From Archangium sp. (lineage in GTDB: Bacteria; Myxococcota; Myxococcia; Myxococcales; Myxococcaceae), in contig JASGKS010000001.1 of assembly GCA_047600485.1 (NCBI GenBank), positions 6,848,259 through 6,912,258 of the forward strand: a stretch of DNA of 64,000 nt. The letters are read 5' to 3'. The notes beneath the pieces were generated by a model. It saw only the letters and a program-made list of their open reading frames with translations. It was not told the DNA's origin and ran no database searches. Shown here piece by piece: positions 5,614 to 61,319 of this stretch. The position numbers and the translations under genes are program-made. The first letter of the stretch is position 1; each line of letters starts with the position of its first letter.

Positions 5614-5656
5614 TCTCCCTCTCCTTGCGAAGCGGGGAGAGGGCCGGGGTGAGGGG
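5614..5656 (+). repeat. Dispersed palindromic repeat, copy 1 (subtype with TTGCGAAGC loop), immediately after the TAA stop of the upstream + gene
   Basis: Sequence TCTCCCTCTCCTTGCGAAGCGGGGAGAGGGCCGGGGTGAGGGG. It contains the hairpin CCCTCTCC / GGAGAGGG followed by a G-tract tail, and is nearly identical to the copy at 61193. Confidence 0.7.
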
Positions 5657-5690
5657 CTGGTGCAACCTCAACCGTCGAGGGGGAACTCAC

Positions 5691-7658
5691 ATGAAGGCCG
5701 TGCTCAAGGTGTTGCTCGGGCTCACGCTCGGGCTCGTCATCGCCGAGTTCGCGTTCCGCATGCGCGACGACGGAGCGTTTCCGCATCTCAACTTCTACGT
5801 GGCCGACGAAGCGCTCGGCGCGCGGCTGCAGCCCAACGCGTCGATGAAGCTCCGCGTCGGCGAGAACAACCCGCTCACCACGGTGACGACCAATTCTCGC
5901 GGCTACCGCGGCGCGGAATGGGCGGCGCCTTCGCCGAACGACGTGCTGGTGGTCGGAGACAGCCAGACCTTCGGCCTCGGCGTGAACGACGACGAGACGT
6001 TCAGCGCGAAGCTCGCGAAGGAACTGAACGCGCCGGTCTTGAACCTCGGCGTGCCGACGTGGGGCCCGCTCGAATACTCGGCCGCGCTCGAAGAGCAGTT
6101 GAAAGACCGCAAGCCGCGCGCGTGCGTCTACGTGCTCAACCTCGCCAACGACCTGTTCGAGGCCGACCGCCCGAACTCGAAGCGCCACAAAATCTGGGAC
6201 GGCTGGGCGGTGCGCGCAGAGACCGCGCCGGCGTCGGTGACGAACTTCCCGGGCCGCTCGTGGTTCATGTCGCAGAGCCACCTGGTGTTCGGCGTTCGCA
6301 AGCTGATGCACAAGAAAGACGTGTTGGACGAGGGGTTCCGCTCGGAAGGTTCGTTCACCGACGTGGTCGCGGCGTCCGAGACGATGCGCGCCGAAGCGGC
6401 CGATGAGCCGACGAAGAAGTTCCTCGCCGCGCGCAAGGAACTCGACGACCAGCTCCGCGCCGTGAGCTCGAAGCTCGAGGAGCACTTCGAGCAGAAAATC
6501 TACGACGACGACGAGTGGGCGACGAAGTTGAGCGAGCGCGCTGGAGAGAACCCCAACGACATCTTCGACGAAGACGGTGAAGCGGGCCGCAGCGTGAACA
6601 GCACCGCGCTGCATCTGGTCACCGCGGCGATGTCCGACTCCAACAACGACGCGTGGCTCAAGAAGCTCGCTGATGAGAAGGGCGACCCGGAATTGAAGCG
6701 CATCATCGACGAGCGCAAAGAACTGCGCGCCAAGATGCTCGCGCTGCGCATCGAGTCGCAGGCCCTCAACGAGGTGCCGCTCGATCGCGTGCTCGCGCGA
6801 ACCAAGAAGGCGTGTGAAGCGGCGGGCGCGCGGCTGCTGGTGGTGACCTTGCCGCTCGACGTGATGGTCTCGCCCGACGAGTGGAAGAAGTACGGCACCA
6901 AGCCCATCGACCTCACGCCGACGGTCGCGCTGCGCCAGAGCCTCACGCGACGCATCGAAGCGCTGGGCGCCGAAGCCGTCGACCCGACGTTCGCGCTCGC
7001 GGCGGTCGAGCCCGGAGCGTTCCTCGACAAGGACCTGCACATGACTCCGAAGGGTCACGAGCAGGTCGCGGGAGTCATCGCCAACATCCTGCGCTCGCCG
7101 CCAAAGGCGCCGGTGCTGCAGCTGCCTGCCGGGCGTTCGTGGCTGCCAACGCAGGCGGAGTGCGAGGCCGCTCCGGAGTGCACGGTGAAGGGCAGCTCGA
7201 AGGCGAAGTGTTCGACCAAGTTGATTCGCGAGTGGCTGTTCGTCGACTGCGAGCTGTCACCCGATGGGCCGCACCTCAAGCTGGTGAACGTCACGAGCGG
7301 CGGTCACGGCGACGCGTACAGCGCGAGCAACGGGCGTTTCTACGTGCCGATTCTCGAGGGCGACTCGGTGCGCGCGACGTTCTCGTGGTTCATGGAAGAG
7401 CGAGAGCTGCAGCTCGATTTCCCCAAGGGCGGGAAGCTGGCGATGTCGTTCACCGACGCGAAGAAAGCGTCGCCTCCCGCAAGCTCGAACGTCGCTACGC
7501 CCGCCGCGTTCCCCGAGACCGACGTGTCGTGCCCCGCGGGCGAGCTGGTCTCGGGCGCGACGCGGCGGTGCGCGAAGCCGTGCTCGGCTGATCATCGCTG
7601 CGCCGAAGGGCAGCATTGCGAGCCGTGGCCGACCGGAGAGTTCTGCGCAACGCCTTGA
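5691..7658 (+). CDS. SGNH/GDSL-hydrolase-family protein with an N-terminal TM anchor, a coiled-coil insert and a Cys-rich C-terminal domain
   Basis: The start MKAVLKVLLGLTLGLVIAEF is preferred over the upstream TTG of the track ORF. A GDS block VLVVGDSQTFGLGV and a block V DLHMTPKGHEQVA are present. The C-terminus has about 14 Cys. A paralog lies at 15843..17873 on the opposite strand. Confidence 0.6.
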   Translation: MKAVLKVLLGLTLGLVIAEFAFRMRDDGAFPHLNFYVADEALGARLQPNASMKLRVGENNPLTTVTTNSRGYRGAEWAAPSPNDVLVVGDSQTFGLGVNDDETFSAKLAKELNAPVLNLGVPTWGPLEYSAALEEQLKDRKPRACVYVLNLANDLFEADRPNSKRHKIWDGWAVRAETAPASVTNFPGRSWFMSQSHLVFGVRKLMHKKDVLDEGFRSEGSFTDVVAASETMRAEAADEPTKKFLAARKELDDQLRAVSSKLEEHFEQKIYDDDEWATKLSERAGENPNDIFDEDGEAGRSVNSTALHLVTAAMSDSNNDAWLKKLADEKGDPELKRIIDERKELRAKMLALRIESQALNEVPLDRVLARTKKACEAAGARLLVVTLPLDVMVSPDEWKKYGTKPIDLTPTVALRQSLTRRIEALGAEAVDPTFALAAVEPGAFLDKDLHMTPKGHEQVAGVIANILRSPPKAPVLQLPAGRSWLPTQAECEAAPECTVKGSSKAKCSTKLIREWLFVDCELSPDGPHLKLVNVTSGGHGDAYSASNGRFYVPILEGDSVRATFSWFMEERELQLDFPKGGKLAMSFTDAKKASPPASSNVATPAAFPETDVSCPAGELVSGATRRCAKPCSADHRCAEGQHCEPWPTGEFCATP

Positions 7659-7703
7659 TCCGCCTCGGGCGAAACGGGAATTACCGGGCCGAATATGTAG
7701 GGC

Positions 7704-8594
7704 ATGGCTCCAGTTACGAACCGACCTGCTCCGCGAATCCCACCTCCCCCGCCTCGCCCTGCGCCGGCGCCAATCCGCCCTCAGGCCCCCGCTCGTAGTG
7801 CTCCGCCGCAGACGCTGACTCAGCGGGGCGTCAGCTTCTTCGAGCGCAACCGCACCAACCTGCAGCAGACCGGAGCGGCCGTCATGCGCGCGCGGACGCA
7901 GCTCACCGACGCCGCCAACGCTGCGCGTCGCCTGCAAGGAAATCCGGTCGTCAACGCGCGCAACACGACGTCGACGTTCGGTCGCGCGATGCGCCCGCTG
8001 CGCATCGGTGGCTCGGTGTTCGGTATGGCGAACAACGTGCGTCGTCTGCCGGGTCAGATGGCGACGGCGTTCACCGACATTCGCCGCGCGTTTCGCACCG
8101 GCTCGGCCGCCGACCGCATTCAGGCCGAGCGTTCGTCGCGCACCGCGCTGAGCACGTATTCCACCATCGGCGACACGGCCGCCGCGTTCCGTCGCAACGC
8201 GCGGGCCGCGACGTACGGCGTGACGCGCACCATTCAGCAGCGTGCTCCGCAGCTCGCCGCGCGTGTCGGTGAGACCGCGACGCGGCTGGCTGAATCGAGC
8301 GCGGCGCGCATCGCGACCCGCGTCATCTCCAACCCCGCGGTGCGCGCGACGGCTTCGGTCGCTGGCCGCTCGCTCGCGCGCTTCGTACCTGCCGCCAACG
8401 TGGCCATCGCCGCGCTCGACATTCGCGAAGCGCGCCGCGCGCTGGCCGACCCGAACGCCAGCACCGGCCGTCGCGTGACGTCGGTCATCACCGCGATTGG
8501 CTCGACTGTCGCGGCCTCCAACATCCCCGTCGTGTCGCAAATCGGCGCGGCGGTCTCGACCATCTCGTCGGCGATCGGCTGGTTGTTCTCATGA
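7704..8594 (+). CDS. Hypothetical protein: Pro-rich N-terminus, Ala/Arg/Thr/Ser-rich body, hydrophobic C-terminal segment
   Basis: 296 aa. It starts MAPVTNRPAPRIPPPPPRPAPAPIRPQAP... and ends AIGSTVAASNIPVVSQIGAAVSTISSAIGWLFS. GC3 is lower over the first ~40 codons. Its stop overlaps the start of the downstream gene (ATGA). Confidence 0.45.
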   Translation: MAPVTNRPAPRIPPPPPRPAPAPIRPQAPARSAPPQTLTQRGVSFFERNRTNLQQTGAAVMRARTQLTDAANAARRLQGNPVVNARNTTSTFGRAMRPLRIGGSVFGMANNVRRLPGQMATAFTDIRRAFRTGSAADRIQAERSSRTALSTYSTIGDTAAAFRRNARAATYGVTRTIQQRAPQLAARVGETATRLAESSAARIATRVISNPAVRATASVAGRSLARFVPAANVAIAALDIREARRALADPNASTGRRVTSVITAIGSTVAASNIPVVSQIGAAVSTISSAIGWLFS

Positions 8595-9613: not shown

Positions 9614-9614
9614 A

Positions 9615-10028
9615 TCAGCGCGGCGTGATGGGCGCCTTCTTGAACCGGCCCCACGCGACGAACGCCGCGAGACCACCCATCACGAAGTTGGGCACCAGGC
9701 CGCCGTACTCTCCACGCGAGACGTGGAAGCCGGCGGCGAGAATCATCACCACGACGAGCCCGGCGGCGGCGAGCGCGGTGAGCTTCGGCTGAATGCGCGT
9801 GAGCGACGGGAGCAGCAGCCCGATTCCTCCGAGCAGCTCGCTGACGCCGATGAAGCGCACCAGCGCGGGTGGAACGGCGCCGGGCCACACCATCTGCTTC
9901 GCGAGCTCTTCGATGGGCGCGGTCGACTTCATGAGACCCGCCATTCCGAACGCGAGCGCGAGCAGGACCTGAACGATCCACAGCGCGATGTTGAGACCCT
10001 TCGAGGGCTGGGTGGTTTCGGTCGACAT
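9615..10028 (-). CDS. DoxX-family membrane protein
   Basis: 137 aa with four TM helices. The LALAFGMAGLMK and LLGGIGLLLP motifs are typical of DoxX. It is divergent from an HxlR regulator, the classic pairing. Confidence 0.8.
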   Translation of the reverse strand: MSTETTQPSKGLNIALWIVQVLLALAFGMAGLMKSTAPIEELAKQMVWPGAVPPALVRFIGVSELLGGIGLLLPSLTRIQPKLTALAAAGLVVVMILAAGFHVSRGEYGGLVPNFVMGGLAAFVAWGRFKKAPITPR

Positions 10029-10092
10029 GACGTGGTTCCTGTTCGTGCTCCCGGTGCCTGCATGGCCCGTTGGTACCTGTTAGTAACTGGCC

Positions 10093-10536
10093 ATGCCGAG
10101 AGCGCAAGAAGGCACATTGATGTCACCGGGTCTGAAGAAGGTGGCGGTTCCAGTTCGCGCGGTCGACCCGGCGTGCATGGCGGTGCGCGACGTGCTCTCG
10201 CTGGTCGGCGACAAGTGGAGCGTGCTGGTGGTCGGCATTCTCGGCAACGGCACGCAGCGGTTCAGCGAGTTGAAGCGCTCCATCGAGGGCATCTCGCAGC
10301 GCATGCTGACGCTCACGCTGCGCGGGCTCGAGCGCGATGGCTTGGTGAAGCGCACGGTGTTTCCGACCGTGCCTCCGCGGGTGGAATACGAGCTGACGAA
10401 GCTCGGCCGCACGTTGCTCGGGCCGGTGAGCGCGCTCGCGAGCTGGGCGAACGAGAATCACGAAGAGCTCACGGCGGCGCGGAAGAAATACGAGCTCAAG
10501 AATCCCCCTCTCCCGCGAGGGAGAGGGTTGGGGTGA
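10093..10536 (+). CDS. HxlR-family (MarR-like winged-helix) transcriptional regulator; C-terminus extended by the dispersed repeat
   Basis: The core [75 protein letters not shown] is canonical HxlR. The likely start is MSPGLKK (about 10120). The last 10 aa ([10 protein letters not shown]) are encoded by repeat copy 2. Confidence 0.8.
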
Positions 10537-10539
10537 GGG
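10503..10539 (+). repeat. Dispersed palindromic repeat, copy 2 (GCGA-loop subtype), forming the 3' end of the HxlR ORF and lying between convergent genes
   Basis: CCCCCTCTCCCGCGAGGGAGAGGGTTGGGGTGAGGGT. Coordinates are corrected by -1 for the label drift in this zone. Confidence 0.7.
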
Positions 10540-10547
10540 TCGAAGAC

Positions 10548-13086: not shown

Positions 13087-15090
13087 GTGGCACGCATGCG
13101 TTGGTCGCTCCTCTGTTTCACGCTCGTAGCGTGCGCCCCACCCGACCCTGACTCGGCTCGCATCTACGCCTTCGAAGAAGACCGCGAATCGGTTCGCTCC
13201 GCGCTGCATGGCCTGAGCACCGCCGCACGCTTCACGCAGGACACCGACCTCGAGCGCGCTGCCGCCGAGCTCGGGCTGGGGCTCGTCCTCATCCGCGATG
13301 GGCAGACGTGCCCCGGGTGTTACGAGCTGATTCCCCGCAACGAGCGTGTCGTCGAGCTGCATGCGTCGACCGAGCTGGGCGTGCAGTACGGCCTCGCGCA
13401 CTGGCTCGAGTCACTCGGTTACGGCTTCTTTCACCCGAACCACACGCGCGAGCCCGAGCACTTCCCGAAGAAGCTCTCGCTCACGGCGGCGAAGTACGTG
13501 CCCGAGATTCCGCGGCGAGGACTGCACCTGCACACGCTCCACCCCATCGAGCCGATGTTCGATTTCTGGGTGCCGTCGGACGAACACTTCGAAGGCGCGA
13601 AGGCGACCATCGACTGGCTGATTCGCAATCGCGGCAACTACATCCAATGGGCGGCGCTCGACGACATTCGCAAGGACCCGGCGAAGGCCGCGCAGTGGCG
13701 CGTGCACACCAACCGCATTCTCTCCTACGCGAGCGAGCGCGGCGTTGAGACCGGGCTCACCGTGCAGCTCTTCGACAACGCGTCGCTGCAGCAGTCGTAC
13801 ACGCTCATCGATTCGGCGCGCCCTGATGACGAGGCGGCGTTGACCGAGCGGCTGCGCACCGTGGTCGACGGCGTTCCGTTCGGAAATCTCAACGTGTCGT
13901 TCGGCGAGTTCTTCGGCGCCGACCCGCAGGCCTTCATCGACAAGGTCGACACCACCGAGCGATTGCTGAGCGCCATTCGTCCTGACGCGTCGATGTCGGC
14001 GGTGGTGCACGTTGGCGACACGCCAGAGCTGCGCGTCACGTACCAGGGCCGCGAGCAGCTCTATTACTTCCTCGTGCGGTACGTGAACCCGCGCATCATC
14101 CCGCGCGTGCACACGGTGATGTTCTACAACTTGTTCGATTCCGCGGGCGGCGCGTACCAGCACCGTGACTTCTCGGAGCACCGCGAGTTCCTGCGCGAGC
14201 GCATCGAGCGCGGAGTTCCCGCGAGCTACTACCCGGAGTCGGCGTATTGGGTCGCGTTCGACAACTCGGTGCCGACGTATTTGCCGGTGTACCTGCGCTC
14301 GCGCTTCACCGACCTCGCGGGCATTCGCGCGCTGGCAGACACCGGCTTCGCCAACCTCGATGAGCACCTGGTGTTCAGCAGCGGTTGGGAATGGGGCTAC
14401 TGGCAGAACGACGCGATGACGCTGCGCATGTCGTACGCGCTGCCGTCGAAGTGGAGTGACGGGCTCGACGCTGCGCTCGGCCCGACGGCGGGCGACATCG
14501 CGCGACGGCTCGGTGAGGTGCAGCACCGCGCGCTCATCGTCGAAGAGCTCGCTCCGTGGTTGGCGGGGAGAGATCAGGTCATCGACGCTGCGGCCACGCT
14601 CGGCCACATCGCCGCGCCGGATCGCCTGGCGTTCTCCGCGTTGGGTGCGGACTTCGGCGCGACGCTGCAGAAGCTCGAGACGCACGCGCTCGAGGTCGAA
14701 GCGCTCGCGAGCGAGGCGTCGCCGCTGCGAGGTGACGATGCGTTCTTGAACGAGTTCGTCGACGGCGTGGAAATCACCGCGGCGCGCACGCGCTTCATCT
14801 GGGCAGTGGCTTCCGCGGCGCGCGCCTTCAATCTGGGTCAGCCGCACGACGCGTTCCTGCAGCAAGCGCAGGATGCCTTCGCGCGCGGCACGCGACTCGC
14901 CGGACAGCGGCGCGTTGGGTTTCACCACCCGAACCCGTCACTGCTCGTCTCCGACGGGAGCAACCCGACGTTCTACGACTACGGCTATCTGCGCGACGCG
15001 AACACGCTGTGCTTCTGGAAACGCGAGCTCGCGCAGGTTCGCAACCTCGTCGAGAACGCCGGGCTCACGGTGCCCGGCTGCGTCCTCTGA
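13087..15090 (+). CDS. Large hypothetical lipoprotein (667 aa); a TIM-barrel glycosidase-like fold is possible but unproven
   Basis: Lipobox LVACAPP. There is no clear catalytic motif. The stop is followed 3 nt later by repeat copy 3. Confidence 0.5.
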   Translation: MARMRWSLLCFTLVACAPPDPDSARIYAFEEDRESVRSALHGLSTAARFTQDTDLERAAAELGLGLVLIRDGQTCPGCYELIPRNERVVELHASTELGVQYGLAHWLESLGYGFFHPNHTREPEHFPKKLSLTAAKYVPEIPRRGLHLHTLHPIEPMFDFWVPSDEHFEGAKATIDWLIRNRGNYIQWAALDDIRKDPAKAAQWRVHTNRILSYASERGVETGLTVQLFDNASLQQSYTLIDSARPDDEAALTERLRTVVDGVPFGNLNVSFGEFFGADPQAFIDKVDTTERLLSAIRPDASMSAVVHVGDTPELRVTYQGREQLYYFLVRYVNPRIIPRVHTVMFYNLFDSAGGAYQHRDFSEHREFLRERIERGVPASYYPESAYWVAFDNSVPTYLPVYLRSRFTDLAGIRALADTGFANLDEHLVFSSGWEWGYWQNDAMTLRMSYALPSKWSDGLDAALGPTAGDIARRLGEVQHRALIVEELAPWLAGRDQVIDAAATLGHIAAPDRLAFSALGADFGATLQKLETHALEVEALASEASPLRGDDAFLNEFVDGVEITAARTRFIWAVASAARAFNLGQPHDAFLQQAQDAFARGTRLAGQRRVGFHHPNPSLLVSDGSNPTFYDYGYLRDANTLCFWKRELAQVRNLVENAGLTVPGCVL

Positions 15091-15093
15091 ACT

Positions 15094-15132
15094 CCCCCTC
15101 TCCCGCGAGGGAGAGGGTCGGGGTGAGGGTGG
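15094..15132 (+). repeat. Dispersed palindromic repeat, copy 3, between convergent genes
   Basis: CCCCCTCTCCCGCGAGGGAGAGGGTCGGGGTGAGGGTGG, starting 4 nt after the TGA at 15088-15090. Confidence 0.75.
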
Positions 15133-38895: not shown

Positions 38896-38901
38896 GGGTG
38901 G
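38863..38901 (+). repeat. Dispersed palindromic repeat, copy 4, forming the 3' end of the RsuA-like ORF
   Basis: CCCCCTCTCCCGCGAGGGAGAGGGTCGGGGTGAGGGTGG, identical to copy 3. Confidence 0.75.
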
Positions 38902-41206: not shown

Positions 41207-41252
41207 GCCCCTCTCCCCGGCCCTCTCCCCGCTTCGCATGGAGAGGGAGATT
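41207..41252 (-). repeat. Dispersed palindromic repeat, copy 5 (minus orientation), directly after the stop of the gene at 41252..42244
   Basis: The plus-strand sequence is CCCCTCTCCCCGGCCCTCTCCCCGCTTCGCATGGAGAGGGAGAT. Its reverse complement matches the TTGCGAAGC-loop subtype with a loop variant ATGCGAAGC. Confidence 0.7.
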
Positions 41253-48136: not shown

Positions 48137-49591
48137 TTACTCCACCCACGAGAGCGGGCTCGACGGCGTGTGCAGCCGCGTGACCGTCACGTCGCGCACG
48201 TGCTTCTGCCCGTCGGGCGTGACGACCTCGAGCTTGTGCGGCCCGACGCTCACTTCGAAGCGCCCCGGAGCAAACCCCACCGACTTGCCGTCGACCTTCA
48301 CCTCGCCGCGCAGCAGGGCTTCGCCGCCGATGCTGATCAGTCCCGTGCCGGTCTCGACCACGACCGCGGGAATCACCTTCGTCGGGACCTTCGGTCGCAC
48401 GACACCTTCAGTGGGCGCCGGAGTGGACGCGTCGGGCACGAACGACTTCTCGGGAGCCGGCACTTCCGCTTCCACTTTCGGTTGCGTGTCGACGACAGGC
48501 TTGAGCACCACCGGAGGTGGAGGCAACGGCTGCGGCTCACTGAAGAGCACCGACACGCCGACGCCCGTCACGCCCGCCAGACCGACGACGAGAAATGGAA
48601 CCCACGCGCGACGCGTCGGCTTCGGCGAGCTCGCGACGACCGGCTTCGACGGCACCATCGGCGTCGCCTGCTCGATGAACGCGTCACGCGACGGAGCGAC
48701 CGACGCGACCCACTCCGCCAACGCCTTGCGCGGCTCGGCACCGGCGGCTTCTCTGACCGCGATGGCCGAGCACGCGAGCGCGAACGCCTCGGCGCTCTCG
48801 TAGCGTTCGGCTTTGTTCCGCCGCGTGGCGCGCGCAATTACGTCGCGCAGCTCGGGGTGCACGTCGAACGACAGCGTGAGTTCCTGGCCCGCGAGCAAGT
48901 CGACCAGCGCGTTCTCGTCGCGCAGCGCGCTCTCTCCGGTGAGCAGCGCGTGCAGCACGCAGCCGAGCGCGAACACGTCGGTGCGCGCGTCGAGCGAGCC
49001 GCGAATCGCCTGCTCCGGAGCCATGTACGCCGGCTTCCCGCGCGCCACGCCACCGACGGTCTTCTCGGTGCGCCCTTCAGCGAGCGCGATGCCGAAGTCG
49101 GAAAGCTTCACGTCACCGCCGCGCGAGACGAGGACGTTCTGTGGGCTCACGTCGCGGTGCACGATGTTGAGTGGCTTGCCGTCGTCCGACGTCGCGGCGT
49201 GCGCGAAGTGCAGCGCGTGACCGACCGTCGCGCACACGTGCAGCGCGAGCGCGACCGGCATGGGTTTGCTCATCGCCCGGCCCCACTTCGCGAGGCGCCA
49301 CACGTCGAAGCCGTCGATCAACTCCAGCACCTGAAACGCGCGGCCCGCTTCGACGCCGAAGTCGAGAATCGAGACGATGCCCGCGTGGTGCAGGCGGCTG
49401 GTGATGCGCGCCTCGTCGAGGAACATGCGCTCGAACGCGCCACCATCTTCTTCCTGCCGCGCGAAGAGCTGCTTGATGGCGACGCGCCGTGTGAAGCCCG
49501 CGTCACCGTGCGCGACCGCGAGCCACACCTCGGCCATGCCGCCTTCCGCGAGACGGCGCTGCAGCTCGTAGCGGCCAGCGAGGCGCGTCAT
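48137..49591 (-). CDS. Ser/Thr protein kinase with a TM segment and a C-terminal PEGA domain
   Basis: Kinase motifs LAEGGMAEVWLA, HRDVSPQNVLV, DFGIA, APEQ. The TM segment is WVPFLVVGLAGVTGVGVSVL and the PEGA is ..LLRGEVKVDGKSVGFAPGRFEVSVGPHKLEV.. Confidence 0.85.
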   Translation of the reverse strand: MTRLAGRYELQRRLAEGGMAEVWLAVAHGDAGFTRRVAIKQLFARQEEDGGAFERMFLDEARITSRLHHAGIVSILDFGVEAGRAFQVLELIDGFDVWRLAKWGRAMSKPMPVALALHVCATVGHALHFAHAATSDDGKPLNIVHRDVSPQNVLVSRGGDVKLSDFGIALAEGRTEKTVGGVARGKPAYMAPEQAIRGSLDARTDVFALGCVLHALLTGESALRDENALVDLLAGQELTLSFDVHPELRDVIARATRRNKAERYESAEAFALACSAIAVREAAGAEPRKALAEWVASVAPSRDAFIEQATPMVPSKPVVASSPKPTRRAWVPFLVVGLAGVTGVGVSVLFSEPQPLPPPPVVLKPVVDTQPKVEAEVPAPEKSFVPDASTPAPTEGVVRPKVPTKVIPAVVVETGTGLISIGGEALLRGEVKVDGKSVGFAPGRFEVSVGPHKLEVVTPDGQKHVRDVTVTRLHTPSSPLSWVE

Positions 49592-49609: not shown

Positions 49610-51196
49610 CTACGCGAACAAGTCTTTCACGACATCGGTCAGCTGCTTCGGCGCGCGCACCGGGTGGTAGTGCACCGTCAACGCCGAGGCGAAGTCCTTC
49701 GCGGTCGCCGGCCGCTGCGTGCGTTCCTTCTCGAGCGCCGAGCGCACCAGCGCTTCGAGCGGCCCCGAAATCTCGTCGCGCCGCTCGCGCACCGAGACCT
49801 CTTTCTTCGCGCGAATCGCTTCCGTCAATTCTTCGAGCGTGTTGCCGACGAAGGGCTGCTCGAGGGTGAGCAGCTCGTAGAGCGTCACGCCCGCGGCCCA
49901 CAAATCGACCGACGGCGTGTGCGAGCCCATCAGCGCTTCCGGAGCGAGGTACGTCGGCCGCCCTTCCTTCAACGCGCGGCGCGCATCGCCCGAGCGGCGC
50001 GCGGTGCCGAAGTCGCCGAGCTTGATGGCTCCCGACTTCGCGATGAAGACGTTGTGCGGAGAGACGTCGCCGTGCACCAGTTCCCACGGCGCGCCGGTCT
50101 CGTCTTTCACGCCGTGCACCGCCGAGAGCGCGTCGAGCAGCACCTTCACCAGGTAGCAGGCGACGTCGATGGGCAGCTTCTTCTTGCGAGAGCGCGCGCG
50201 GCGGAGAATTTGCGAGAGGTCGTGGCCCTCGACGAGCTCCATCGCGAGGTAGTGCTGACCGTCGACCACGCCCGAGTCGACGAGCTTCACGATGTTGGCG
50301 TGCTTGAGCAGCGAGAGCGTCCTCGCTTCTTGCTCGAAGGCCTTCACCGCCTTCGCGTCACTCGCGCGGCGAGCGTGGAGCCGCTTGAGCGCCACCTGGT
50401 CGCCCTTGCGCGGCCCCTCGAAACCGCGCGCGGCGTGCACCACACTGGTGCCTCCGGTGCCGAGCAGCGTCATCACTTCCCACGGGCCGATGCGCTCGGG
50501 GCCTCCGTCACCTTTCGCAGCGGGAGGCGCGAGCGCGTCGACCTTTTCCTTCACGCCGGGCTTGGAGTCGGAAGAGAACTGCACCGACACGCCCTGCTCG
50601 GAGACGTTCACCACCGTCGCCGGCGCAGTCACTTCGCCGGTCGGCAGCCGAATCTCGACCTCGACCTTTTCGCGCAGCACCGGCGGCGGCGTCAGCGTGC
50701 GAAGCAGCGCGCCACCGGCCGACACGTTCTGCACCACCGCTTCGATTTTCTTGTCGCCGACCAGCACCGTGGCGGGCGCGATGACGGGCAGACGCGGCTC
50801 GGAGCGACGCTCGGGACTCTGCGCGAGCACCTCGTCGAGCACCTTGAGCACTTCGTCGGGCAACAGGCCGAGCCGCTGCACGCCGCACTGCTCGAAGCGG
50901 GACAGGAACTCGGCGCGCGCGCGGAAGTCGTCGCTGAGTTCCCACACCTTTCCGCCTGCGTGCTCACCTGCGTTGGTGATGGCGGCCTGGGTGCCCTCAC
51001 TGAAACGGTCTTCGCGGAAGCGGAGAATGACGAAGAGCTCCGGGCCGCCGAGGCGCAGACCGAGGTCGACCTGCAACAACGCCTCATCGAGGGCAGACAG
51101 CCAGATGTCGACGCAGCGGATGGCGCTCTGCCGGCGGTGACCTGATGCGTTCTCGAAGACGATCGCGCGCTCGACCGTCTCAACTCCGGCGCTCAC
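49610..51196 (-). CDS. PilZ-domain / Ser/Thr-kinase fusion protein
   Basis: The central PilZ signature is ERRSEPRLPV...QNVSAGGALLRT (RxxxR ... N.S.GG). It is followed by a Hanks kinase (LGTGGTSVVHAA, HGDVSPHNVFI, DFGTAR, APE). Confidence 0.7.
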   Translation of the reverse strand: MSAGVETVERAIVFENASGHRRQSAIRCVDIWLSALDEALLQVDLGLRLGGPELFVILRFREDRFSEGTQAAITNAGEHAGGKVWELSDDFRARAEFLSRFEQCGVQRLGLLPDEVLKVLDEVLAQSPERRSEPRLPVIAPATVLVGDKKIEAVVQNVSAGGALLRTLTPPPVLREKVEVEIRLPTGEVTAPATVVNVSEQGVSVQFSSDSKPGVKEKVDALAPPAAKGDGGPERIGPWEVMTLLGTGGTSVVHAARGFEGPRKGDQVALKRLHARRASDAKAVKAFEQEARTLSLLKHANIVKLVDSGVVDGQHYLAMELVEGHDLSQILRRARSRKKKLPIDVACYLVKVLLDALSAVHGVKDETGAPWELVHGDVSPHNVFIAKSGAIKLGDFGTARRSGDARRALKEGRPTYLAPEALMGSHTPSVDLWAAGVTLYELLTLEQPFVGNTLEELTEAIRAKKEVSVRERRDEISGPLEALVRSALEKERTQRPATAKDFASALTVHYHPVRAPKQLTDVVKDLFA

Positions 51197-52371: not shown

Positions 52372-55300
52372 CTACTTCGCGACCGGCTTCAACGACTGCC
52401 GCTGCAGGAAGCGCACGAAGAGCTGCACCACCTCGGGGCGGAAGCGATGCGCGACCTTGGACCCGATGAGCTCGACGATTTGGTCCTTGGGCATCGCCTC
52501 GCGTGAAGCGGTCGCGGTGCTGAGCGACTCGTACGCCCGCGCGAGCGCCACGATGCTGCCCATCAAGCCAATCGACGCCATCGCGCCGAGGCTGCCGGGC
52601 CGTTCGCGCGTGCCCCAGTCGAGGTCCTGCTCGACGAGAATCGACGACCACGACGCCGCGGCTGGAGCATCACCCAGCTTCACGAACGGGAAGCGCACCG
52701 AAGTCTTCCGCGCAGCCGCGATGGCTTGTTGATCAGCCTCGGTCAGCTTCCCCGCGCGCTCGAGCATCTCGTCCTTCAAGTCGAAGTTGCCCACCTCGCT
52801 GAAGAACGACACCTGCGCCAAATCCATCAGCTGTTGATGCTCGAGGCCCAGCTCTCCGCCGAACATCACCGCGAGCATCATCACGTTCGCCGCGTGGAAC
52901 ACCTCGGCTTCGGCGTTGCGCTTGCGCGGCGTGAGGCCCGCGAAACGCACCATGCGTGAGTGCGCGGCCGTCGCCACCTCGTGGAAGACCTGCCGCACGT
53001 CGGGCATCTCGGCGCGCGGGTTCATCTTCCGCTCCGTCATCCACGCGCGGAACCCGAGCACCAGGTCGACGTACCGAATCATCGCTTCGCGCGAGAAGTC
53101 GGTCATCGGCGACGGGCGGATGTCGGGCTTCGCCGGCTTCGGCTGCTGGTTGTTCGCCGACACCAGCGTGATGGACGAGGTCTCGATGCCTTCGGCGTTC
53201 GCGCCCGCAGCGAGCCAGCGCACCAGCAATTCCAATTCAGCGCGCGGAGGCTGGCGCGTGAACGTGAAGCCCGCCACGCCGCGGCTCTCGAACGCCTTCT
53301 TCACGCGCTCGACCGCGCCGTCGTTGCCTTCGCCGACGGGCGCTCCATTCACGGTGAGCGAAGGAGAGGTCGTCACGCTCGCCTGCGCGCCCGCCGGCAG
53401 CAGCGCCGCGAGCGTCTTGCTGATGCGGGTGAACGCGGTGTCGAACAATTCGCTGTCGAGCTCGACGAGGCGCGAGGCCTGAGAGAGCGCGTGCAGGTCC
53501 ATCAACACGTCGCGCCACGCGGGCGGGTTGCGGTCCCACCTCCGAAGCTCGCCGACGTGCGACGTGGTCTCGGCAATCAACGCCGCCGAGCGCAGATGCC
53601 GGTCGGCCGCCGCGCGCACCGAATCGCCCTGCGACGAATCGTCGTTCACGCGCTGCATGAGCGAGGCCGCGTCGTCGCCCTTCATCACCGCGAGGCCTTC
53701 GAGCACCTCGACCTTGCGGCCTTCCGACTTGGCGCGACCGAGCAGCGGGCGCTGTGCGAGCTCGCTGGCCATCATCGACAGCGCCTCGGGCGAGTTCGAC
53801 TGGCCGATGGAAATCCACAGCGCGCGGCGTTCCTGGTCGGTGCGGGTGCTCGCGTTGTTGGGCTCGACCACGCCCTTGAGCGCCGCCAACACGCGCTCGG
53901 GGAAGTGCTTTCCGAGGAGCTGAATCGAGTGCAGCCGCGTCTCCGATTCCTCGTCGGTGACGCCCTGGCACACCAGCTTGTACGCGTCGTCCGAGCCCGC
54001 GCGCGCGAGGCCGGTCAACACCTCGCGACGGCGTGCGGGGTCGAGCCGGGCGAGCAGCTCACGCACGATGCGCGAGCGGTCTCCGACGCGGCCCTTCTCG
54101 AGGCAGTACACCAATTCCATGATGCGCCGCGGCCGCTTGGGCGCGAGCAAGTCGATGAACGGCTGCGGGCTGAGCGCGCACAACGACGCGAGGCCGGGGA
54201 GCAGCGCATCACGCGACGCAGCGAGGTCGATGTTCTCGAACAGCGAAATCCACGTCGGGCCGAACGCGGGGCCAAAGAAGGCGATGAGCTTGCCGAGCCC
54301 TTCAGCATCGGCCGGCTTGTTCTCGCGCAACCGCAGCGAGATGCGACGCGCGTTCTCGGTGGTCGCGAACTGCGAGATGGCGAAGTCGTACGCCCACTTG
54401 TGCAGCGCGTCGGCCTCGCCGTGGAACTTGAGGCGCTCGAGCAACGTCGCGAGCGTGCCCCACGCTTCCGCCATGAAGAGACCGTCGATGGCGCCGGCCA
54501 GCCGCTCGGAGACGAGTGATTCGGGCTCGACGTACTTGAGCAGCCGCGCGGCGTGGTCGGCGTAGCGCACCAGCAGGTGCAGCCCTTCGTCGCGCGCGAG
54601 TTCCTTGCGCACGCTCTCGAGCTCGACGGCGGTGCCCAGACCCGGGCCCGTGTCGTAGAGCCGCATGGTCGTCGCGTCGGCCATCACCACCGCGGCGCGA
54701 ACTTCAGGCGTGCTCGCGACTGGATTTGGCGGTTGCTGCTGCGCGGGAACGTGCGCGGCGAAACCGCCCGAGCGCGACGGCGGCGGAGCGAGCGGCAAGC
54801 CCTGACCGGGACCCGGCGTCGGCGGGCGTGAAATCGGCAAGCCGCGGCCCGGCCCCGGCGTGTGCGGAGAAATCGCGGGCGGCGGTGGCGCGCTCGCGAC
54901 GGACATTGGCAGCCCGCGGCCCGGCCCCGGCGTGTTGAGCGGCAGACCCTTGCCCGGCCCCGGCGTGAGCGACGACGGCGCGTGCTGAGGGAACGAGCCG
55001 GAGCTGCGCGACTTCGTGCCCGGCGTCAGCGGACCCGCGGTGCCGCGCGCGTTGAACGCTTCGATGGGCACAGCCGCGGCAGTCGAGCCGACGGTGATGC
55101 GCATGCCGCCGCCATCATCGTCATCGTCGTCTTTCTTCGCAGCGGGCGGCGGCGGAGGCGGCGGAAGCTTCTGCGTCGACGGGCGCGCGACGGCCGCGGT
55201 GGCGATGGGCGTGAGCCCCGACATGTCGACGTCGGAGAAGAATTGATCGAACAGCTCCTCGCTGTGCTTCTTCGCGGCGGCGCTCTGCAGCGGAGGCACG

Positions 55301-56451
55301 ACGGGCTTCGCGGCAACGGGCGTGGGCGGTGAAACAGCCGGCGGCGGCGGCAGCGGCTGCGTGGTGCGGGCCATCGGCGCACCGAACGCGGCGAACGGGT
55401 CACCTCCCGCAGCGGGAACTCCGCTGGGCGGAGAGATGCGTGAAGGCGAGAGCTGCTTGGCGACGTACGGCGTGGCGACGGACGCGGGCGTGGGCGACGT
55501 GCCGGGCTTGTTCGGAGAAGAGGCCGGCTCTTCCTGGTACTGCGTGGCGAGCGAGGCGAGCTGGCGAGTGCCGACGCGCACGCCGCTCCCGGCGACGAAT
55601 TCTTCGAGGGCCGAAGCGAGCTCGCGGCAATTCTGGAAGCGAACGTTGAGGTTCTTCGCCATCGCCTTGGCGACGATGTTGGCGTACTCGCGCGGCACGT
55701 CAGGAACGCGGCGCGTGAGCGGCACCGGGTCGGTCTTGATGATGTCGGCGATGAGCTGTTGATCAGGTACCTGCTCGTACGGCCGCGTGCCGGCAGCGAA
55801 CTCGTAGAGGATGACGCCGAGCGCGTAGACGTCGGCGCGCAGGTCGGCCTCTCCGATGATCTGCTCGGGAGGCATGTACGCAATCTTCCCCTTCACCGTG
55901 CCGTCGAAGGTCGCGGCCTGCGCACCGGTCTTCGCGATGCCGAAGTCGACGACCTTCACCGCGCCGTTGCGCGCAATGAGCATGTTGTCGGTGCTCACGT
56001 CGCAGTGAATGAGGCCCATCGGCTTGCCCGACGCGTCGGCGAACTCGTGCACGTACGCGAGGCCTTCACAGGCTTCTTCGATGACGCGCGCGCCGACGGC
56101 GAGTGGAATTCGGCGGTCGGGCGAGGCGCGCAGAATCGAGCGCAGGTTCGGACCGTCGACGAATTCCATCGCGAGGAAGTACGTGCCGTTCACTTCACCG
56201 AAGTCGAAGATTTGAACGACTGCGGGGTGCGCGAACTGCGCGGCGATGCGCGCTTCCTGCAGGAACATCGAGACGAACGATTCGTCCTTCGCGAGCGTCG
56301 GCAGAATGCGTTTGATGACGAGTGATTTCTCGAACCCGCCGGGTCCGATGACTTTCGCCAGAAACACCTCGGCCATGCCGCCCGTGGCCAGCTTCCGAAC
56401 CAGGTGGTACCGACCGAGCTGTTCCCCTTCGCTCGCCATCGCCGGGCGCAT
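52372..56451 (-). CDS. Large Ser/Thr protein kinase (1359 aa): N-terminal kinase, Pro-rich linker with tandem TPGPG(R/K/Q)GLP motifs, ~800-aa helical C-terminal domain of unknown function
   Basis: Kinase motifs LATGGMAEVFLA, HCDVSTDNMLI, DFGIAK, PPE. The linker contains LTPGPGKGLPLN/TPGPGRGLPMS/..TPGPGRGLPIS/..TPGPGQGLPLA. The stop abuts the phosphatase stop (52371/52372). Confidence 0.8.
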   Translation of the reverse strand: MRPAMASEGEQLGRYHLVRKLATGGMAEVFLAKVIGPGGFEKSLVIKRILPTLAKDESFVSMFLQEARIAAQFAHPAVVQIFDFGEVNGTYFLAMEFVDGPNLRSILRASPDRRIPLAVGARVIEEACEGLAYVHEFADASGKPMGLIHCDVSTDNMLIARNGAVKVVDFGIAKTGAQAATFDGTVKGKIAYMPPEQIIGEADLRADVYALGVILYEFAAGTRPYEQVPDQQLIADIIKTDPVPLTRRVPDVPREYANIVAKAMAKNLNVRFQNCRELASALEEFVAGSGVRVGTRQLASLATQYQEEPASSPNKPGTSPTPASVATPYVAKQLSPSRISPPSGVPAAGGDPFAAFGAPMARTTQPLPPPPAVSPPTPVAAKPVVPPLQSAAAKKHSEELFDQFFSDVDMSGLTPIATAAVARPSTQKLPPPPPPPAAKKDDDDDDGGGMRITVGSTAAAVPIEAFNARGTAGPLTPGTKSRSSGSFPQHAPSSLTPGPGKGLPLNTPGPGRGLPMSVASAPPPPAISPHTPGPGRGLPISRPPTPGPGQGLPLAPPPSRSGGFAAHVPAQQQPPNPVASTPEVRAAVVMADATTMRLYDTGPGLGTAVELESVRKELARDEGLHLLVRYADHAARLLKYVEPESLVSERLAGAIDGLFMAEAWGTLATLLERLKFHGEADALHKWAYDFAISQFATTENARRISLRLRENKPADAEGLGKLIAFFGPAFGPTWISLFENIDLAASRDALLPGLASLCALSPQPFIDLLAPKRPRRIMELVYCLEKGRVGDRSRIVRELLARLDPARRREVLTGLARAGSDDAYKLVCQGVTDEESETRLHSIQLLGKHFPERVLAALKGVVEPNNASTRTDQERRALWISIGQSNSPEALSMMASELAQRPLLGRAKSEGRKVEVLEGLAVMKGDDAASLMQRVNDDSSQGDSVRAAADRHLRSAALIAETTSHVGELRRWDRNPPAWRDVLMDLHALSQASRLVELDSELFDTAFTRISKTLAALLPAGAQASVTTSPSLTVNGAPVGEGNDGAVERVKKAFESRGVAGFTFTRQPPRAELELLVRWLAAGANAEGIETSSITLVSANNQQPKPAKPDIRPSPMTDFSREAMIRYVDLVLGFRAWMTERKMNPRAEMPDVRQVFHEVATAAHSRMVRFAGLTPRKRNAEAEVFHAANVMMLAVMFGGELGLEHQQLMDLAQVSFFSEVGNFDLKDEMLERAGKLTEADQQAIAAARKTSVRFPFVKLGDAPAAASWSSILVEQDLDWGTRERPGSLGAMASIGLMGSIVALARAYESLSTATASREAMPKDQIVELIGSKVAHRFRPEVVQLFVRFLQRQSLKPVAK

Positions 56452-56485
56452 CGTAGCGACGCAACCACCTGAAACACACGCGAGT

Positions 56486-58021: not shown

Positions 58022-58605
58022 GAGCGGGCTCCCAACGACTGCCACGCGAGCGCGGGGAGATTCTTGCGCAGCCAGGCGGGCGAGAAGTCCGCGCCGAGCA
58101 ACCAGCGGCGGCAGGCCTCGTGACTGGGCCCGAGGAGCACGACGTCGAGCAGCTCGGGTTCCCATCGAGGGAGTTCTTTCGCGAAGGGCTTCAGCCGACT
58201 CAGCAACGGAGCCATCGCTTCTCGCTTTCTCTTCACGATGCGCGCCTGCAACGCCGGAGCGAACCGCAGCCCGACGGCCTCGTACATCACGCGCGCTTCT
58301 CGCTCGTGGGCGAAGACCCAGTCGAGGTGTGAGCGCACCAACTCTTCGACGAGCTGGCGGGCGGTGGTGGCTCCTTCGAGCTTCGCGGTGAGCTCGGAGA
58401 AGAGGCGCGCGAAGATTCGCTCCAGCAGCGCGGCGGTGACGTCGGGAATTCCGTCGGGGAAGAGGTGGTACACGCTCGACGGGCTGGCCTTCGCCGCGGC
58501 ACGGATTTCTTCGATGCCGGCGCCGAAGACTCCGCTCTTCGCGAAGCACGACAACGCTGCGTCGAGAATGGCTTCACGGCGCGAATCGCCGTCCTTGCGT
58601 CTCAT
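58018..58605 (-). CDS. TetR-family transcriptional regulator
   Basis: 195 aa. The HTH is REAILDAALSCFAKSGVFGAGIEEIRAAAKASPSSVYHLFPDG. It is the in-frame C-terminal part of track ORF 58018..58968. Confidence 0.8.
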   Translation of the reverse strand: MRRKDGDSRREAILDAALSCFAKSGVFGAGIEEIRAAAKASPSSVYHLFPDGIPDVTAALLERIFARLFSELTAKLEGATTARQLVEELVRSHLDWVFAHEREARVMYEAVGLRFAPALQARIVKRKREAMAPLLSRLKPFAKELPRWEPELLDVVLLGPSHEACRRWLLGADFSPAWLRKNLPALAWQSLGARS

Positions 58606-58647
58606 GTGAAGGGTGGACCCTACACGAGGTGCGCGCCGATCACTGGG

Positions 58648-58685
58648 CCCTCTCCCCGACCCTCTCCCCTGTCGGGGAGAGGGAG
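58648..58685 (-). repeat. Dispersed palindromic repeat, copy 7 (minus orientation), in the TetR/SDR divergent intergenic region
   Basis: CCCTCTCCCCGACCCTCTCCCCTGTCGGGGAGAGGGAG. It is the only copy not directly 3' of a co-oriented gene. Confidence 0.65.
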
Positions 58686-58732
58686 TTTCGATTTGGAATG
58701 TTCCTCCAACTAGAGGAATACTCCAACTCAAC

Positions 58733-59467
58733 ATGGACCTCATCCTCACCGGAGCCTCGCGCGGCATCGGAGCGGCACTGACTTCGGCACTGCGCCAGCG
58801 CGACGACCTGCGGCTCTTCCTCGTCGCCCGGGACTCCAGCCGACTCGAAGCCCTCGCCGCGCAGTGCCGGAACGCGAAGGTATTCAGCGTCGATCTCGCG
58901 AGCGTGCAGGCCGCGAGTGAGCTGGGGCAACGGCTCGCGAGCGAAGTCACGAACGGAGCAACCCTCATTCACAACGCCGGCCTCTGGCCATCAAAGCTCG
59001 AGCTCACCGCCGAGGGTTTCGAGCGCGCCTACGCGGTGAACCACCTCGCACCGCTGGCGCTGCAGGAGCCCCTGCTCGAAGCGAAGCTGCTCTCGCGGGT
59101 CCTCGTCGTCGGCGCCGGCTTGATGGTGAAAGGCCGCTTCGACGCCGCGAAGACTCCGAGCGGCAAAGACTTCTCGAGCTTCCGCACCTACGCCACCACC
59201 AAGCGCTGCTTCGCCGAAGCGACCCGCGCGACGGCCGCACGACAGCCTGAAGTCGACTTCGCCGTCGTTCACCCCGGCGTCGTGAACACCGAACTCGGCG
59301 CGCGCACCGGCCCGCTCGGCTGGCTCCTCAAACTCGTGAAGCGAAACTGGGAATCCCCGCAGCTCTGCGCGGCGCGGCTCGCTCGGTTGCTCGAGCGTTC
59401 CCGCTGGTCGCAGCCCGGAACCGCCGCATGGTTCTTCGAAGAGGCGCAGCAGCCGTGGCCGATTTGA
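58733..59467 (+). CDS. Short-chain dehydrogenase/reductase (SDR) family oxidoreductase
   Basis: MDLILTGASRGIGAAL (TGxxxGxG), NAG and Y..K (YATTKRC) are present. The upstream 40 codons of track ORF 58613..59467 cover the repeat and are rejected. Confidence 0.8.
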   Translation: MDLILTGASRGIGAALTSALRQRDDLRLFLVARDSSRLEALAAQCRNAKVFSVDLASVQAASELGQRLASEVTNGATLIHNAGLWPSKLELTAEGFERAYAVNHLAPLALQEPLLEAKLLSRVLVVGAGLMVKGRFDAAKTPSGKDFSSFRTYATTKRCFAEATRATAARQPEVDFAVVHPGVVNTELGARTGPLGWLLKLVKRNWESPQLCAARLARLLERSRWSQPGTAAWFFEEAQQPWPI

Positions 59468-59479
59468 TAGACGGCGATC

Positions 59480-60559: not shown

Positions 60560-61191
60560 ACGCGCGCGCACTCCTCTTTACTGCGGGACTCCTGCTGCTC
60601 GGCGGTTGTGTGGAGACGCGCTCCGTCGCGTTGACCTTCGGCTCCGATGGCGAAGGCCTCGATGGCTTCATGTGCAAGGACAGCACGGACACGCAGCTCC
60701 TCTCTCGTTTGCCGAGCGGCGGAAAAGCGAGCCTGGTCATCGACTTCATTCGCCTGGGCGGCGTGCCCGGGTGCCGCACCGGTCAGCTGATGAAGTGGTG
60801 TGGCTCGCACGACTGCTCGGCGATTCAGCAGACGCGCTCGTGCGTCGAGGTGAAGTTGCCGGGCCCGAACGCGGCGCGCGAAGAGCTGCGCACGCAATTG
60901 CTCGGCGCGATTCGCGAGAGTGGTGGGTTTCAGGCGCTGGCCGATGCGCCCGATGAGTTCGTCATCGTGCGCGTGGTCGGGACGGCGCAGTCGTGTGATT
61001 CGCTCCTGCCTTCGGGTGACGCGCCGCTGCCGGCGTTCGACAAGTCACAGCTCGTCGGGTGCGCGTACAGCTGCCCGGTGTTGCTCGACAAGGTCGACCA
61101 GGACGTCTACCTCGGCTTCGAGACGCTCACCGCGTCGTGCGAGCAGGGCGTGCGCATCTGCAGCGACGGCCAGCTGCAGTGGCAGCCCTGA
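60556..61191 (+). CDS. Hypothetical Cys-rich lipoprotein
   Basis: The GTG start overlaps the PEGA gene's stop (GTGA). The sequence begins VNARALLFTAGLLLLGGCVE and has 11 Cys in the mature part. The upstream 145 codons of track ORF 60121..61191 are rejected. Confidence 0.5.
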   Translation: MNARALLFTAGLLLLGGCVETRSVALTFGSDGEGLDGFMCKDSTDTQLLSRLPSGGKASLVIDFIRLGGVPGCRTGQLMKWCGSHDCSAIQQTRSCVEVKLPGPNAAREELRTQLLGAIRESGGFQALADAPDEFVIVRVVGTAQSCDSLLPSGDAPLPAFDKSQLVGCAYSCPVLLDKVDQDVYLGFETLTASCEQGVRICSDGQLQWQP

Positions 61192-61192
61192 T

Positions 61193-61234
61193 CTCCCTCT
61201 CCTTGCGAAGCGGGGAGAGGGTCGGGGTGAGGGG
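61193..61234 (+). repeat. Dispersed palindromic repeat, copy 8 (plus orientation), immediately after the TGA of the lipoprotein gene
   Basis: TCTCCCTCTCCTTGCGAAGCGGGGAGAGGGTCGGGGTGAGGGG. It differs from copy 1 at one position. Confidence 0.75.
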
Positions 61235-61276
61235 CAGATACGAGCAGAGCCCTGATGGATGCTTCCGTCTGATCAG

Positions 61277-61319
61277 CCCCTCTCCCCAGCCCTCTCCCCG
61301 CTGTCGCAGGGAGAGGGAG
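61277..61319 (-). repeat. Dispersed palindromic repeat, copy 9 (minus orientation), abutting the stop of the sigma-54 activator gene; copies 8 and 9 form an inverted pair between convergent genes
   Basis: The plus-strand sequence is CCCCTCTCCCCAGCCCTCTCCCCGCTGTCGCAGGGAGAGGGAGT. Confidence 0.7.

Follow-up and report, generated by a model that had tools for sequence, protein, structure and literature searches.

The stretch of DNA analysed here (the window) is 64 kb of the genome of an Archangium sp. (contig JASGKS010000001.1, positions 6,848,259 to 6,912,258), with a GC content of 66-70% throughout. Its gene content is typical of Myxococcota and includes an FHA/sigma-54 activator, five Ser/Thr kinases, and PEGA and thrombospondin-type repeats; among species-representative genomes, the best relatives of its RluA-like pseudouridine synthase gene were found in Archangium and other Myxococcaceae, at no more than 76% amino-acid identity. 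Dispersed among these genes are nine copies (E1 to E9, listed in Table 1) of a short repeat in which a C-block is followed by a complementary G-block and then by a second G-block, CCCTCTCC(C)-loop-GGGAGAGGG-NNN-GGG(T/A)GAGGG. By pattern and by similarity the nine repeats are assigned to a family already published under the names BoxC, PIT, TM-ECO and HPG. The element is gained and lost at orthologous sites as a discrete unit of about 35 nt.

Structure and identity of the repeat

The unit is 33-40 nt long and consists of the C-block CCCTCTCCC, the G-block GGGAGAGGG and a near-duplicate third block, GGGTGAGGG, with two hypervariable loops between them. The hairpin pattern CCCTCTCC-N3-14-GGAGAGGG was matched nine times in the window, where none was expected from 100 dinucleotide-preserving shuffles; the G-rich arm was matched at the identical nine places, and the 64 kb held no further copies. 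The G-part of the published pattern, GGGNGAGGG-N3-GGGNGAGGG, was present without mismatch in all nine copies, and the count was still exactly nine when two mismatches were allowed. An earlier sequence-only reading of the window had listed nine copies, all of which were recovered within 1-3 nt of the positions given there.

That reading had described each copy as a perfect hairpin that could alternatively fold as a G-quadruplex (G4). A perfect stem of 8-12 bp was found in 9/9 copies (RNA folding energy -20 to -30 kcal/mol), and so was a canonical G4 motif (four tracts of at least three G, separated by N1-7). The sequence thus has the capacity for both folds, a duality that had already been published for the motif (PMC5100583; PMC4666352). 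The same nine places accounted for every canonical G4 motif on both strands of the window, while mononucleotide shuffles yielded about 19; G4 motifs are otherwise strongly avoided in this sequence of 67% GC.

Two loop subtypes had been proposed, and five loop variants were distinguished among the nine copies. The loops are hypervariable across the family as a whole. Four copies (E1, E5, E8 and E9) belong to a long-loop variant with an 8-nt C-block and a first loop of 10-11 nt that forms a GCGAAGC-type mini-hairpin, and one identical 34-mer is common to three copies. In the flanks of the nine window copies and 212 other copies, only C-C/T at positions -2 and -1, just 5' of the C-block, and G 3' of block 3 were conserved. 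The family scan used a pattern in which the variable positions of blocks 1 and 2 were fixed and only that of block 3 was left free; at this position T was found 181 times, A 26 times, C five times and G once.

We also considered whether chance, or the base composition of a genome with 67% GC, could produce the pattern. Dinucleotide-shuffled versions of single copies fold nearly as well as the real ones (z = -0.2 to -2.6), so that hairpin energy alone is unexceptional for a sequence made of a C-run and a G-run. Shuffles of the whole window, however, gave 0.00-0.06 matches against the nine real ones, three copies share the identical 34-mer, and the motif is also found in E. coli, in more than 120 IMG/VR contigs and in replicons of Azospirillum, Methylobacterium and Variovorax. 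The shuffle controls exclude a compositional artefact, and the probability that we assign to chance or composition is practically nil.

The sequence-only reading had not recognised the repeat as a named element. The TM-ECO pattern is 5'-CCCTCNCCC-N3-6-GGGNGAGGG-N3-GGGNGAGGG-3' (Holder et al., 2015; PMC4666352); five of the nine copies fit it exactly, and the remaining four differ only by the 8-nt C-block and the first loop of 10-11 nt. When a 42-nt window copy was used as the query, it matched 32,682 places, spread over 4531 of the 5426 complete E. coli genomes, with 84-90% identity across at least 80% of its length and a median of seven places per genome, and no annotated feature lay beneath the places among the matches listed. 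With both the published pattern and the similarity to E. coli in hand, the claim of a new kind of element does not stand. The repeat was noticed as BoxC in the 1990s and was rediscovered in 2000 as the PIT (potential intrastrand triplex) element (PMC4666352); BoxC is also listed among the stem-loop families of E. coli (PMC2267715). Near-identical sequences, with the same inverted pairs of two subtypes, appear in the E. coli table (Table 1) of Holder et al. (PMC4666352). The same E. coli sequences were described as HPG1/HPG2, a conserved G-quadruplex/hairpin/duplex switch, by Kaplan et al. (2016; PMC5100583). At the gathering thresholds, an Rfam scan of the window gave no match, Rfam being without a model for the element.

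Outside E. coli, the same 42-nt query matched 55 plasmid records, mostly of large non-mobilizable replicons of Azospirillum, Methylobacterium and Variovorax; enterobacterial plasmids were also present, and the organism tally included one Deinococcus record. A relaxed pattern was used for IMG/VR and returned the contigs mentioned above. These are probably host DNA within provirus calls, because curated phage genomes were almost free of the motif (3 of 50,697 records). For the long-loop subtype, a scan of metagenomes turned up one short contig. The distribution of the motif is wider than the 'proteobacterial' range of the 2015 survey.

That survey counted 3610 occurrences across 262 proteobacterial genomes, the most (143) being those of Enterobacter asburiae, and its supplementary table gives one copy for Myxococcus xanthus DK1622 (Holder et al., 2015; PMC4666352). 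The window, with nine copies in 64 kb, has one copy per 7 kb, or about 0.14 per kb, and a genome of 10 Mb would hold more than 1000 copies provided that the window is representative. The genome of Enterobacter asburiae is about 4.8 Mb in size, which puts its 143 copies at about 0.03 per kb; given this size, the density in the window is about five times the published maximum.

Gain, loss and conservation at orthologous sites

The distribution of copies in relatives was patchy: 24 were found in 80 orthologous loci (1.3 Mb), most loci having none, while locus L125 had six in 20.8 kb. The sequence-only reading had suggested that the repeat may be mobile and had proposed that empty sites be sought in related genomes; the repeat behaves as a sequence prone to insertion and deletion, orthologous sites in related Myxococcota being filled, empty or partly deleted.

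The end of the RluA gene, where E4 lies, carried copies at three different positions across lineages and was empty in most of them. Both the window and L125 have the element after one and the same conserved Phe/Tyr codon, in an identical frame and in place of the ancestral xPRxx* tail; L125 still shows the displaced tail (GAGCC...) 3' of a clean insert of about 36 nt. A hairpin-only copy was found 12 nt further on in L124. At a third position, 8 nt past the stop codon, L135 has a full copy and L131 a decayed one, and the gene end was empty in L121-123, L126-130 and L132. The site of E5 was empty in L125 (TGA-gggcgctc-GTG).

Two further sites were compared within Archangium. At site X, which is flanked by convergent stop codons 6-7 nt apart, the element, about 35 nt long, is the only difference between the filled (L160 and L176) and empty (L172 and L157) alleles. 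At site Y four species were filled and two were empty (TGA-GGTCCC-ATG), and one strain keeps the hairpin and has lost block 3; the site has extra arms and a possible CTGA repeat. Among the four filled species the numbers of variable columns at site Y were 0/27 in the blocks, 4/6 in the loops and 21/60 in the rest of the spacer (p = 5e-5), and site X showed the same pattern of conserved blocks and variable loops. No target-site duplication was seen at the clean inserts (site X and the L125 RluA end). Features of miniature inverted-repeat transposable elements were likewise absent from sites X and Y and the L125 RluA end, in that there were no terminal inverted repeats and no consistent duplication, the hairpin being internal.

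In E. coli the adk-hemH spacer was also considered as a site of insertion. Two non-homologous alleles exist (K-12, L202; O145 RM9154, L203): a BoxC-bearing spacer of 235 nt, which covers the query in 2917 of 5426 genomes, and an alternative spacer of 131 nt with a different palindrome, found in most of the remaining genomes. The case was rejected as a clean insertion, since the whole spacer is replaced and there is no insertion signature.

Conserved blocks with variable loops and flanks, repeated independent changes at the same RluA gene end, and deletion derivatives that lose block 3 are also in keeping with a role at the DNA level, in which an intrastrand purine-motif triplex or a G4 formed in transiently single-stranded DNA would stall replication or repair and so create rearrangement hotspots, or in which the copies would serve as binding sites for a protein specific to their structure or sequence. 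The TM-ECO single strand forms a stable purine-motif triplex in vitro, as seen by circular dichroism and nuclear magnetic resonance, and motif-bearing loci are unusually variable among E. coli strains (PMC4666352); a K+/Mg2+-dependent switch between G4 and hairpin has been reported as well (PMC5100583). However, the triplex was detected neither in duplex DNA nor by in vivo footprinting (Holder et al., PMC4666352), the variability of the loci is equally explained by gain and loss of the element itself, and no candidate binding protein is known. On balance we hold a DNA-level role to be decidedly unlikely.

Placement and orientation of the copies

Gene contexts in the window were re-annotated from frame-specific GC content, Pfam/NCBIfam matches and orthologs, and the resulting gene map is approximate. 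Coordinates and contexts of the nine copies in terms of the flanking genes and open reading frames (ORFs) are collected in Table 1.

Table 1. The nine copies of the repeat in the window and their gene contexts.
Copy	Position	Strand	Type	Context
E1	5617-5655	+	long-loop variant, loop TTGCGAAGCG	tandem spacer: TAA of ORF 5151-5612, 4 nt, element, 35 nt, ATG of SGNH/AlgX-like gene
E2	10506-10539	+	exact TM-ECO pattern, loop GCGA	in-frame fusion to HxlR-family gene 10093-10536 (last ten codons), stop being the TGA of GGGTGAGGG; convergent LysR-family gene, its stop 8 nt beyond element
E3	15096-15129	+	exact TM-ECO pattern	5 nt past TGA of ORF 13087-15090; convergent, gene-like minus-strand ORF ending 15 nt beyond element
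E4	38865-38898	+	exact TM-ECO pattern	in-frame fusion to RluA-type pseudouridine synthase gene 38029-38895 (last ten codons), stop inside element (TGA of GGGTGAGGG), in place of ancestral xPRxx* tail of relatives; convergent PBP transpeptidase gene, its stop 7 nt beyond element
E5	41209-41247	-	long-loop variant	fills operon-like spacer: TGA of ORF 41252-42244, 4 nt, element, 7 nt, ATG (41201) of lipoprotein-like gene
E6	44495-44528	-	exact TM-ECO pattern	in frame within 5' part of TonB-dependent receptor ORF, whose start GTG 44571 is 1 nt past TerB stop; element 44 nt past TerB stop
E7	58648-58683	-	loop CGACAG, fits published pattern	126-nt divergent spacer between TetR-family gene (-, ATG 58605) and SDR gene (+, ATG 58733)
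E8	61195-61233	+	long-loop variant	3 nt past TGA of ORF ~60562-61191; left half of inverted doublet
E9	61278-61317	-	long-loop variant, loop CTGCGACAGCG	2 nt past TGA of FHA/sigma-54 activator gene 61320-62837; right half of inverted doublet

Five copies start 2-5 nt after stop codons, two are fused to gene ends as the last ten codons, one is intragenic and one lies in a promoter spacer; six of the nine are therefore intergenic, and three (E2, E4 and E6) overlap coding sequence. The copies land preferentially in very short gene-end spacers, above all convergent ones, and also occur in last codons, in an ORF linker and in a promoter spacer. Convergent spacers were occupied in 4 of about 7 cases and other junctions in 3 of about 35 (Fisher p = 0.009, on the approximate gene map), and the three convergent spacers without a copy are 0-3 nt long. 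Three copies had been placed between convergent gene pairs by the sequence-only reading; there are in fact five (E2, E3, E4, E8 and E9) in four such spacers. The tight adjacency to stop codons largely follows from the shortness of the native spacers (0-20 nt; empty orthologous sites 6-11 nt).

The position of the copies is non-random, as had been claimed, while the fixed orientation that was claimed with it is suggestive only and rests on about five informative copies. All five plus-strand copies do lie at or in the ends of co-oriented genes, either 4, 5 or 3 nt after the stop codon or containing it (the HxlR and RluA-like genes). Three of the four minus-strand copies had been placed directly after minus-strand genes, which applies to E5 and E9 (4 and 2 nt after the stop) and fails for E6. 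An apparent fixed orientation can be read for 8/9 copies; a copy in a convergent spacer is uninformative, because either orientation is co-oriented with one of the neighbours, and the copies counted as informative (E1, E2, E4, E5 and E6) were sense in 5/5 cases (two-sided p = 0.06). When independent tandem or fused cases elsewhere in Myxococcota were added to those of the window, 9-10 informative contexts were sense and 2 antisense (p ~0.04-0.07). In a broad sample of high-GC IMG/VR contigs the tandem contexts gave 13 sense and 22 antisense copies by crude gene calls, and the E. coli copies in the table of Kaplan et al. (2016) are of mixed orientation (PMC5100583). A sense bias specific to the lineage is possible but unproven; the family as a whole does not have it.

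Two accounts of placement and orientation were tried and rejected. In five copies a TGA or TAA lies 2-5 nt upstream, as if the stop codon were part of the element; no fixed stop offset was found in 179 IMG/VR and 33 Myxococcota copies. The G-blocks might have set the orientation by acting as the Shine-Dalgarno sequence of the next gene; only two of the six tandem cases agree with this (E5, 7 nt from the start codon, and the L135 copy, 4 nt from it), the other tandem copies being 25-44 nt away, some of them from genes with a Shine-Dalgarno sequence of their own, and the effect is hence an occasional by-product.

A host-selected module at transcript 3' ends is the alternative that bears most directly on this placement. 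The sense mRNA would end in a stable CCCUCUCCC/GGGAGAGGG hairpin followed by a G-rich tail able to form an RNA G4, and the module would terminate transcription without a U-tract, or block 3'-to-5' exonucleases, so replacing intrinsic terminators in a high-GC genome. Seven of the nine copies start no more than 5 nt from a co-oriented stop codon or contain one, and the folding energies, the excess of sense copies in Myxococcota, the invariance of the three blocks in orthologous copies and the restriction of G4 motifs in the 64 kb to these nine places all speak for it. T-tract terminator-like sites in the window were about as frequent as chance predicts (counts of 13, 15 and 13, with 13.2, 11.4 and 12.1 expected), which agrees with the earlier observation that U-rich intrinsic terminators are essentially absent and is no proof that the repeats replace them. 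None of the nine copies has a U-tract after its hairpin, the tail being G-rich; the scan flagged only the reverse strand of E7, which does not follow a gene.

Other contexts point away from such a module. E7 lies in a divergent promoter spacer and E6 inside an ORF; the next start codon comes 7 nt after E5 and 4 nt after the L135 copy, and a terminator in these places would be polar; and in the convergent spacers, which hold five copies, orientation says little. The broad sample and the E. coli table show no orientation bias, a plain terminator hairpin has no need of the conserved third block, and the stop-adjacency is largely a matter of spacer length. In addition, an earlier study saw no promoter or terminator activity of PIT elements in E. 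coli, as reported by Holder et al. (PMC4666352). The orientation-dependent terminator or 3'-end role that the sequence-only reading proposed therefore fits poorly with the contexts of E5, E6 and E7, with the lack of a U-tract and with the reported inactivity in E. coli, and we consider a 3'-end module unlikely; the hairpin may still contribute to RNA stability. A more far-reaching version, which we find still more doubtful, would have a sense-oriented, stop-adjacent module amplified to at least 1000 copies (extrapolated) with its three blocks under purifying selection, either as a hairpin/G4 switch that replaces terminators or protects mRNA, or as the product of an installation targeted to stop codons or to a stop codon plus ribosome-binding site. 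If this were true, working out the installing activity would also solve the spread of this class-crossing element.

Some of the contexts deserve a fuller description. The residues encoded by E6 lie between the signal peptide and the CarboxypepD_reg-like domain of the receptor, where the L125 ortholog has an unrelated linker. A placement of the copy after TerB and convergent with a 98-codon ORF was ruled out by the reading frames and by the L125 ortholog. The TonB-dependent receptor gene itself (42245-44571, minus strand) is split over two frames with a break near 43960: the 203 N-terminal codons, counted from GTG 44571, can be aligned to the ortholog in L125 as far as ...QLYHLLAGPA, and homology resumes in the frame of ORF 42245-44224. 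It is either a frameshifted pseudogene or an assembly error. E7, the sole copy in a divergent promoter region, is 42 nt upstream of the TetR-family ATG and 49 nt upstream of the SDR ATG. The same spacer (58605-58733) contains an AT-rich stretch with a possible palindromic operator, TTGGAATGTTCCTCCAA, which adjoins E7. E8 and E9 form an inverted doublet between convergent genes, with halves that are unlike each other in the two loops as well as in the third block; a hairpin of about 60 bp is predicted for 61185-61327 (-104 kcal/mol, z = -10).

The signalling genes of the window include four Ser/Thr kinase genes in 20 kb (36216-38054, 48137-49591, 49610-51196 and 52372-56451, all on the minus strand), one with PEGA, one with PilZ and one, 1359 aa long, with HEAT repeats. 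A hybrid PAS histidine kinase (46282-48123) adds to them, and signalling genes at such a density are typical of Myxococcota. A 1659-aa ORF at 31174-36153 (minus strand) matches the MXAN_6577-like cysteine-rich repeat family (NF041328, 1376 bits, 17 stretches); it is built of about 27 tandem units of 129 nt (387-nt super-period) at about 70% GC, and no family was matched by the long ORF opposite to it. Where the 5' part of the sigma-54 activator ORF overlaps a plus-strand ORF that begins at ~62717, there is a GGC-rich array of 6-nt period (62864-63056; about 32 copies, super-periods of 24-36 nt), which presumably encodes a Gly-rich low-complexity segment in whichever of the two frames is the true one.

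Interpretation and comparison with known systems

The reading that we prefer, with a probability of roughly 65%, is that the repeat is a small, non-autonomous, structure-forming insertion element whose presence at gene ends is tolerated. It would spread as a structure-forming unit of single-stranded DNA, copied either by an activity that acts in trans or by template switching during replication or repair, and selection would mainly filter which copies survive where. The element survives mainly where its insertion is harmless, that is, in gene-end spacers, C-terminal tails and flexible linkers. Effects on genes would be by-products, in that proteins acquire new C-terminal tails, the 3' ends of mRNAs carry a stable hairpin and, in some cases, a Shine-Dalgarno-like GGAG/GAGG comes to lie directly ahead of the following start codon. 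Since all three blocks are invariant in the orthologous copies that are retained, the constraint appears to be on the whole three-block structure and not on the hairpin alone; its source may be a triplex or G4 fold, a binding protein or homogenisation between copies.

Several observations weigh against this interpretation. No transposase, Y1/HUH or other mobilising gene was found among the roughly 50 ORFs scanned in the window, and neither a clear target-site duplication nor a terminal inverted repeat that would define transposition was seen, the possible CTGA at site Y apart. Invariant blocks in orthologous copies are not predicted for a decaying selfish insert and leave room for a host function, the sense excess in Myxococcota is not predicted by pure neutrality, and the adk-hemH case in E. 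coli is a replacement of the whole spacer and not a clean insertion. It is because block invariance puzzles a purely selfish account that the RNA 3'-end module and the DNA-level role both stay alive beside the insertion element.

The family has been known for about 30 years, and to our knowledge has neither an established function nor a known means of spread. A genome this dense in copies, at about five times the record, would be a much better system than E. coli for the study of insertion targets, for the role of the third block and for a search for the mobiliser, which could proceed by comparison of copy-rich with copy-poor relatives. The copies fused to gene ends, the in-frame insert within an ORF and the orthologs with invariant blocks add to its value. 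Annotators of high-GC genomes find in the element an explanation of recurrent P/G/R/E-rich tails and of short spurious ORFs; that it accounts for every canonical G4 motif in the window matters for bacterial G4 surveys.

Among known systems, intrinsic terminators share with the repeat a GC-rich hairpin placed just after stop codons. They differ from it in that the tract 3' of the hairpin is here G-rich, with no U-tract, and that some copies lie in promoter or coding contexts; for the homologues in E. coli, moreover, a lack of terminator activity has been reported (PMC4666352).

The resemblance to REP sequences, which the sequence-only reading had drawn, holds in part. Like REP and REPIN, which are mobilised by RAYT/TnpA-REP (PMC2817692; PMC3116915; PMC3733652), the repeat is a short, GC-rich, extragenic palindrome of high copy number, enriched after genes, with an occasional inverted doublet (one in the window) that can form one long hairpin, and with a patchy, lineage-specific expansion. 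Unlike REP, it has no GTAG/CGTC tag (or CTAC) at its ends in the flanks of the nine window copies and 212 others, and it has an extra third G-block. REP sequences are lineage-specific, whereas the core of the window element is common to distant classes. A RAYT/Y1_Tnp or other transposase domain was not found in the ORFs scanned in the window.

The closest likeness is to BoxC/PIT/TM-ECO itself, with which the window copies share the three blocks and their spacing, conserved stems and variable loops, at least two subtypes that pair as inverted doublets, and the potential for hairpin, triplex and G4. They also share the preference for gene 3' ends and convergent spacers, and the polymorphism between relatives by presence, absence and deletion; the HPG motifs of E. 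coli are intergenic, often between convergent genes and often in inverted pairs (PMC5100583). What is new here is modest and consists of a dense expansion in Myxococcota, the long-loop variant, copies that overlap coding sequence and block-specific conservation in orthologous copies. The published survey has a single copy for M. xanthus DK1622, and here the repeat was found in a myxobacterial host at about 0.14 copies per kb; four window copies have a first loop outside the N3-6 range; unlike the copies of E. coli, which are described as always intergenic, three of the nine overlap coding sequence, and the window shows a suggestive bias towards the sense orientation.

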